Made by a program: the position numbers and the translations under genes
From: Mustelus asterias
Lineage: Eukaryota
Assembly (NCBI RefSeq): GCF_964213995.1
Contig: NC_135826.1
Location: 33,728,001-33,792,000, forward strand
DNA length: 64,000 nucleotides
Direction of reading: 5' to 3'
Part shown: positions 1,337 to 61,745 of the stretch, in pieces
How the letters are laid out: each line of letters begins with the position of its first letter
Numbering within the stretch: position 1 is the stretch's first letter
Notes under the pieces: generated by a model
Seen by the model: the letters and a program-made list of their open reading frames with translations, nothing else
Told to the model about the DNA's origin: nothing
Database searches by the model: none

Positions 1337-1503
1337 ACCTGCAAGTGATGGCAACAGTACAGTTGAGACAATCTGCACTTTCAAAAGGAACGCTGCCCAG
1401 CCAGTTGATGAAGTTCTACTCTACCATGAATTCCGAGACAACACGCAGGGCATCATGACCTTAGGAACATATTCACTGGACACCAACAAACTCTACGTCA
1501 ATG
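1337..1503 (+). CDS. MUC16: SEA1 exon C ([25 protein letters not shown])
   Basis: AG/GT flanks, phase 2 to 1, paralogous to all other C exons. Confidence 0.9.

Positions 1504-61745: not shown

Follow-up and report, generated by a model that had tools for sequence, protein, structure and literature searches.

A predicted MUC16 co-orthologue in the shark Mustelus asterias and its membrane-proximal Gly-Ser SEA domain

Whether a long run of small exons in a cartilaginous fish codes for MUC16 (CA125), how far back the design of this mucin reaches, and whether the SEA domain next to its membrane helix may cut itself are the questions raised by a 64,000-nt stretch of the genome of Mustelus asterias (hereafter the window). 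MUC16-type proteins are O- and N-glycosylated and build a tall glycocalyx on wet epithelia. We hold, with a probability of roughly 0.9 that covers identity and architecture, that the window carries the 3′ part of a type I membrane mucin, a predicted functional co-orthologue of MUC16. We use the cautious term co-orthologue because there are several shark models per genome and at least two shark groups in the tree. Without the match to lampreys and the Gly-Ser (GS) type domain described below, the shark gene would be an ordinary orthologue.

Exon model and identity of the gene

Every AG...GT/GC interval of the right phase was compared with seed exons, and the matches were joined by their coordinates. 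On the forward strand this gave 50 predicted exons between 1337 and 61745 which splice into a single open frame of 1881 codons without an internal stop, the stop codon ending at 61745 (Table 1). The reading proposed in the earlier note, of 50 exons in one open frame with PTS (Thr/Ser-rich) exons, a transmembrane (TM) helix and a tail, is therefore borne out. Its count of 12 SEA modules stands for 11 whole domains, while the twelfth, SEA1, is partial and without exons A and B; the 5′ portion of the gene, including A1 and B1, lies upstream of the window, where the signal peptide and the very large N-terminal PTS domain of a MUC16 would also be placed. The frame further holds four PTS exons. A splice-aware scan returned the same exon classes that had been read from the letters, namely A (152-173 nt, phase 1-0), B (all 11 of 68 nt, phase 0-2), C (161-170 nt, phase 2-1) and the 27-nt micro-exon D after each of SEA1 to SEA10. 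The same scan of the reverse complement gave no matches in any of the four classes, as compared with 11 B, 11 C and 10 D donors plus 19 candidate A donors on the forward strand. Exon C12 was too divergent for the scan and was positioned by eye. Acceptors are AG in 50 of 50 cases and donors GT in 47 of 49, the other two being GC. It may be noted that these two GC-AG introns follow A2 (5432-5433) and A3 (13683-13684), and that the NCBI model P0047 uses the second. A tblastn search with 13 chondrichthyan homologues found no similarity beyond the modelled exons, with the low-complexity filter on, so that extra PTS exons could escape. The dN/dS ratio, computed for 28 pairs of the 8 modules that are equally long (SEA2, SEA5 and SEA12 differ in length and were excluded), lay between 0.15 and 0.50, a range that points to purifying selection on the SEA modules. 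The last coding exon gives the tail two conserved Tyr and one His, and AATAAA occurs at 61747 and 61766.

Table 1. Features of the gene in the window (positions counted from its first letter)
Feature	Span	Strand	Exons or parts	Remarks
SEA1, partial	1337..2055	+	C1 1337-1503, D1 2029-2055	
Two PTS (Thr/Ser-rich) exons	3795..4396	+	3795-3959, 4229-4396	phase 1-1; linker 54% S+T+P
SEA2	5271..8577	+	A 5271-5431, B 5519-5586, C 7859-8025, D 8551-8577	GC donor after A
Two PTS exons	10315..10916	+	10315-10479, 10749-10916	each 3 nt off the first pair
SEA3	13522..16871	+	A 13522-13682, B 13770-13837, C 16065-16234, D 16845-16871	GC donor after A
SEA4	18270..20593	+	A 18270-18430, B 18569-18636, C 20261-20430, D 20567-20593	
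SEA5	21986..25287	+	A 21986-22143, B 22296-22363, C 23972-24132, D 25261-25287	
SEA6	29278..31504	+	A 29278-29429, B 29514-29581, C 31137-31306, D 31478-31504	agrees with NCBI model P0025
SEA7	32298..34719	+	A 32298-32449, B 32537-32604, C 34369-34538, D 34693-34719	
SEA8	36192..41193	+	A 36192-36343, B 36433-36500, C 40821-40990, D 41167-41193	
SEA9	42314..47238	+	A 42314-42468, B 42552-42619, C 44615-44784, D 47212-47238	P0029 identical from within A9
SEA10	50229..51266	+	A 50229-50380, B 50749-50816, C 50919-51088, D 51240-51266	
SEA11, last insert-type	52599..54773	+	A 52599-52759, B 52858-52925, C 54604-54773	no D exon of its own; solved MUC16 SEA domains match it best
SEA12, membrane-proximal GS-hairpin type	55950..58017	+	A 55950-56122, B 56554-56621, C 57857-58017	
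Gly-Ser codons, candidate self-cleavage site	57861..57866	+	P0029 G475-S476	link between strands 464-473 and 476-485
Juxtamembrane and transmembrane exon	58628..58740	+	113 nt	phase 1-0
Last coding exon	61653..61745	+	TM end, basic stop-transfer residues, cytoplasmic tail, stop codon	
Near-identical tandem blocks	1..11047	+	1-4523, 6523-11047	98.3% including introns; period ~6522 nt; carry C-D-PTS-PTS

Closeness to MUC16 as opposed to other SEA families was judged against solved structures. A profile of ten C exons recovered four MUC16 SEA chains, with E between 7e-12 and 1e-4; the only other matches were two ribosomal proteins at E 0.3. With P0029, the NCBI model of the 3′ end, MUC16 SEA chains were matched at E 1e-15 to 4e-12, TMPRSS SEA chains at 7e-7 and 1e-5 and MUC1 at 0.05, and a further PDB search had four MUC16 SEA entries on top (E 8e-37 to 5e-33). 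Foldseek, run on the AlphaFold2 model of P0029 (mean pLDDT 79), put MUC16 SEA chains at ranks 1-5 with an rmsd of 1.6-2.2 Å. On a tail profile trained on 13 amniote proteins the window tail scored 23.0 bits, a value reached by none of 300 shuffles, and each of the 14 non-amniote tails tested outscored its own 300 shuffles, one by a narrow margin. Of 51 homologues, 40 carry the name mucin-16 or mucin-16-like, and MUC1/3/12/13/17, IMPG and UMODL1 do not occur among the names. Structure matches, homologue names, Foldseek and the amniote tail profile thus agree on the MUC16 identity that had been claimed. Those 40 names include NCBI models of this very locus, so the gene is not the hidden or under-described one that the earlier note took it for. 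The Pfam SEA family (PF01390), which that note had also brought in, was matched, with E allowed up to 1, by 18 of 25 exons taken singly, one of which reached the gathering score, and not by the other 7 (C1, A9, B11, B12, C12, TM and tail); P0029 as a whole has 4 Pfam SEA stretches and 230.8 bits, and the full exon model has 12 SEA domains. A cysteine pair with spacing 19 is present in 10 of 10 whole insert-type domains (SEA2-SEA11), the linkers are 43-68% S+T+P, the model has 37 N-glycosylation sequons, and a single TM helix spans residues 541-577 in the AlphaFold2 model of P0029.

Among human mucins MUC16 alone is described as having more than one SEA domain, and a chicken Muc16 is on record (both PMC1552070). 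With human, mouse and chicken MUC16 the shark model has in common the tandem SEA domains with their conserved cysteine pair, S/T/P-rich linkers, a multi-exon repeat module, one TM helix, a short tail with two Tyr, and an odd near-membrane SEA with a GSVVV-like position. The repeat differs, being of 4 exons and ~139 residues in the shark (6 exons with PTS) and of 5 exons and 156 residues in human, and the cysteine spacing is 19 as against the human 20 (positions 59 and 79), the human values being those given in PMC3431878. The odd SEA is the last one in the shark and reads G-S-V, whereas in human it is the penultimate one and reads D-S-V; the amniote terminal SEA has no shark counterpart behind SEA12. 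MUC1, MUC3, MUC12, MUC13 and MUC17 are described with a single SEA domain (PMC4456727), against 12 in the shark model. As regards intron positions, 24 of 66 truncated amniote-like models (so labelled by the taxon of the best match) start at profile position 62, which is the shark B|C junction, although the exon-C query favours such fragments; 10 of 48 end at profile 61-63. The shark A|B junction accounts for 4 of 66 starts and 6 of 48 ends. These counts are at most suggestive of a B|C intron position common to shark and amniote MUC16, and weaker still for A|B.

Two SEA types and the age of the design

The earlier note treated all 12 modules as alike, which does not hold for SEA12. We surveyed 77 proteins with a TM helix after the last whole SEA (P0029 was dropped as a duplicate of the exon model), the counts taking in paralogues and close species and so not being independent. 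Two types were found, which differ in the β2-β3 loop, longer in the insert type than in the short type. Of the 77 proteins, 46 have the short type as their last domain and 22 as the penultimate one, and 9 show it in neither position (one bichir, one marsupial model with GSVWV after an insertion, and seven placental-type); all named proteins among the 46 are non-amniotes and all named among the 22 amniotes. GS[VI] is present in 44 of the 46 terminal short-loop domains, the other two being sharks with G-P, and in 9 of 9 sauropsid penultimate ones. Placental-type short domains have GS in 6 of 13 and begin with D-S, D-P or N-P in the other 7. In a later set of 51 proteins, mostly birds, GS[VI] was present in all 36 that have a whole short-type domain. 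Insert-type rows show GS at the same column in 7 of 150, window SEA11 among them, after a longer loop. Three proteins (P0057, P0058 and P0074 from Dipodomys, Urocitellus and Orycteropus) have no short-type SEA before the last domain, either by true loss or by exons skipped in the models. The chicken model P0245, whose last domain is of GS type, was rejected as truncated, being without a TM helix, and P0127 and P0144 were set aside as no SEA domain was found in them.

In the AlphaFold2 model SEA12 joins β2 and β3 by the two-residue link R474-G475, S476 opening β3 (local pLDDT ~81), as compared with five-residue loops in the other three modelled SEA domains of P0029. The motif G475-S476-V477 thus sits at a short hairpin. 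Its β2 cysteine is replaced by Ala, as the β2 cysteine is missing in 4 others of the 46 but not in mucin-16-like models generally, and three alternating cysteines stand in β3. Neither cysteine of the pair is left in three other shark proteins.

Our trees are built on few columns and include neither an outgroup nor a human protein; the homologue searches brought up no SEA proteins of MUC1/13/17, IMPG or UMODL1. In the larger tree, of 68 domains taken from 24 proteins, SEA12 falls with the last domains of fishes and frogs and the penultimate domains of amniotes (26 rows, support 100/100), and the last domains of amniotes group with the frog penultimate ones (99/96). A 37-row tree with lamprey gave 83/84 for the GS-type clade. 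When the loop columns were removed, the 19 GS-type rows alone had 51/36, a drop that arises because the lamprey penultimate domain falls among them; with that domain included support was 95/88. A single clade of all last domains was rejected (p-AU 0.0023, and 0.00018 without loop columns). On this pattern SEA12 would be the ancestral membrane-proximal domain, in amniotes an insert-type SEA would later have come to lie on its membrane side, and the Gly of GS would have been lost in several placental lineages, that of humans among them.

A HMMER search of 1.84 billion representatives gave 246 matches, the best 150 of which were examined. Among the matches listed is a Lethenteron reissneri protein named mucin-2-like, with 15 SEA domains by our own profiles (14 Pfam stretches), a terminal GSIIV SEA, a TM helix and a tail that scores 32.8 bits on the amniote MUC16 profile. 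It has relatives in Petromyzon and Lampetra, and the next matches are a shark protein and a tortoise mucin-16. Lamprey proteins named mucin-2-like or mucin-5AC-like (XP_061407377.1; Petromyzon A0AAJ7UAF1) combine 14-16 SEA domains, PTS, the terminal GSIIV SEA, TM and a MUC16-type tail, and no database name links them to MUC16. Their repeats differ from those of the shark in being divergent, many of them short-looped without GS, and in a second GS domain further up. Since lampreys have this architecture and tail, the multi-SEA design of MUC16 appears from the sequences to predate jawed vertebrates. An origin in the jawed-vertebrate ancestor, as first suggested, was right as to an old design and underestimated its age. 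The origin of MUC16 would accordingly move from birds, where the cited literature has it, to the ancestor that lampreys share with jawed vertebrates. Our literature search, which had most subscription papers outside its scope, turned up no paper on the MUC16 of sharks or lampreys, nor one on a GS site in MUC16 outside mammals, and Muc16 is not mentioned in PMC4948705. No teleost, hagfish or invertebrate is among the named matches, a weak negative as only part of the candidates were scored and many of the best 150 of 246 are unnamed. It is possible that teleosts lost the gene or changed it fast, though bichirs, sturgeon and paddlefish have it.

Two observations may be added. In the Lampetra fluviatilis model P0196 SEA repeats and a proteasome subunit (PF00227, PF10584) stand in one chain, probably through the fusion of two adjacent genes, which gives a lead for synteny. 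A second GS-type SEA further from the membrane is present in P0093 and P0194 (lampreys), P0013 (Callorhinchus) and P0023 (Polypterus), from which it follows that the GS domain has been duplicated within arrays.

The self-cleavage question

How CA125 is released from MUC16 is debated, as cleavage at DSVLV was proposed by analogy with MUC1 and the site was later found uncleaved. The motif DSVLV belongs to the human penultimate SEA and was set beside the GSVVV of MUC1; PMC4456727 and PMC3431878 report the domain as uncleaved. By its position and the DS motifs of placentals, SEA12 appears to be of the same type as this human domain. With the self-cleaving SEA of MUC1 (and of MUC3/12/13/17) SEA12 has in common the membrane-proximal place and G-S-V at a short β2-β3 hairpin. 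The MUC1 SEA is cleaved between G and S (PMC9564314), and SEA cleavage is described as depending on the strain of a short hairpin and as impaired when residues are inserted into the loop (PMC10556640). However, the sequence match of SEA12 to MUC1 is weak (E 0.05), and the cleavage shown for MUC1 is one that we infer for SEA12. We see an even chance that SEA12 cleaves itself at G/S. It would then do so during folding through conformational strain, as MUC1 does, leaving a sheddable ectodomain, and the repeat SEA domains would be uncleaved glycosylated spacers; membrane mucins are described as forming the glycocalyx (PMC9578598). The odds are also about equal that an ancestral MUC16 cleaved itself. 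In MUC16 the cysteine pair is reported to join β2 and β3 (PMC12143179). Because both cysteines are kept in 41 of 46 terminal copies, the cleaved halves would remain covalently joined, except that the window copy has lost one.

Nearly as strong, at a little under even odds, is the alternative that SEA12 does not cleave itself, that G-S is kept for a tight β-turn and that the ectodomain is shed by a membrane-adjacent protease, as in human MUC16. The human protein is reported to be cut within 12 residues next to the TM helix and not at DSVLV (PMC4456727), most GS domains hold the β2-β3 cysteine pair, SEA12 reads V-K-C and not V-V-V after GS, and two sharks have G-P. Yet Ser, the nucleophile in MUC1-type cleavage, is kept together with Gly from lamprey to birds, the need for a strained short hairpin (PMC10556640) fits the split between short and insert loops, and the human domain that was assayed had already lost the Gly. 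A bolder, combined reading, to which as a whole we give slightly less than one chance in two, is that MUC16 is pan-vertebrate, lampreys included; that the ancestral protein was a self-cleaving heterodimer, a state which fishes, frogs, reptiles, birds and some mammals would retain; and that the human DSVLV is a dead relic, displaced by one position and inactivated repeatedly in placentals. On this combined reading the comparison would explain why the human site resembles a cleavage motif yet fails, and the old DSVLV question becomes testable.

Gene number, array growth and repeats in the window

The shark gene is already named by automated annotation, but it is split into at least three models. 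P0029 and P0025 are called 'mucin-16-like [Mustelus asterias]' and P0047 'uncharacterized'; they cover residues 1288-1881, ~765-1268 and 253-505, respectively, of the 1881-residue frame. P0029 is 100% identical to its last 594 residues, and P0025 splices B4 to C5, leaving out four modelled exons. The mucin-16-like models of sharks, rays, chimaera, bichirs, sturgeon, lungfish and frogs show the same order of insert-type repeats, terminal GS-type SEA, TM and tail, with per-domain identities of up to ~80% in other sharks, whereas the present locus is annotated in pieces. Could the exons then belong to several shorter genes or fragments, or could the block at 1-11047 be an assembly duplicate? Three separate NCBI models map to the locus, two blocks are 98.3% identical with their introns, and there are sharks with several muc16-like models on one contig. 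But all 49 predicted junctions stay in one frame, the sole TM exon and stop found sit at the end, the NCBI fragments begin or end by running into introns, and there are single chains among the homologues that carry 12 to 29 SEA domains. As to a duplicate, the blocks differ at 1.7% of sites, and A2/A3 and B2/B3 differ by 19 and 10 nt, as is expected of real duplicates. Support for the junctions comes from frame, splice signals, homology and agreement with the NCBI models, and we regard these alternatives as improbable. One gene, with a single continuous exon model for a locus so far annotated in pieces, is what we retain; no neighbouring gene was found within the 64-kb window. That another family (MUC1, MUC3/12/17, MUC13, IMPG or UMODL1) converged on a MUC16-like multi-SEA form is largely refuted and very improbable. 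In its favour, SEA12 alone matched TMPRSS and MUC1 chains and a Mucin-1 cluster came third in the Atlas (0.88); against it, the repeats fit MUC16 better by many orders of magnitude, the tail fits MUC16, and no other human mucin is described with multiple SEA domains (PMC1552070).

The array would have grown by tandem duplication of a phase 1-1 module. Exon C1 equals exon C2 at all 167 nt, and the two blocks at the start of the window suggest a recent duplication or a homogenised array, which may extend beyond the window on the upstream side, in the manner of the human repeat region. In the units of SEA6-SEA8 (28960-41275) intron sequence is common at ~79-86%, apparently from an older round of module duplication. 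Exon A12 opens with the D-like motif G-Y-x-E, here G-Y-Q-E, so D and A are one exon at SEA12.

Three frames on the complementary strand resemble pieces of mobile elements. The 263-codon frame at 53862-54653, which ends near the acceptor of exon C11, is like the C-terminal end of a CR1/L2-type LINE ORF2; it has no Pfam match. The frame at 26858-27681 is like a GIY-YIG segment of Penelope type and that at 38803-39246 like part of a Harbinger-type transposase, and neither has a Pfam match at E 0.01. A repeat of ~300 nt, probably a SINE, is present in many intron copies on both strands which are 70-85% alike (e.g. 11320-11640, 25511-25840 and 57320-57640).
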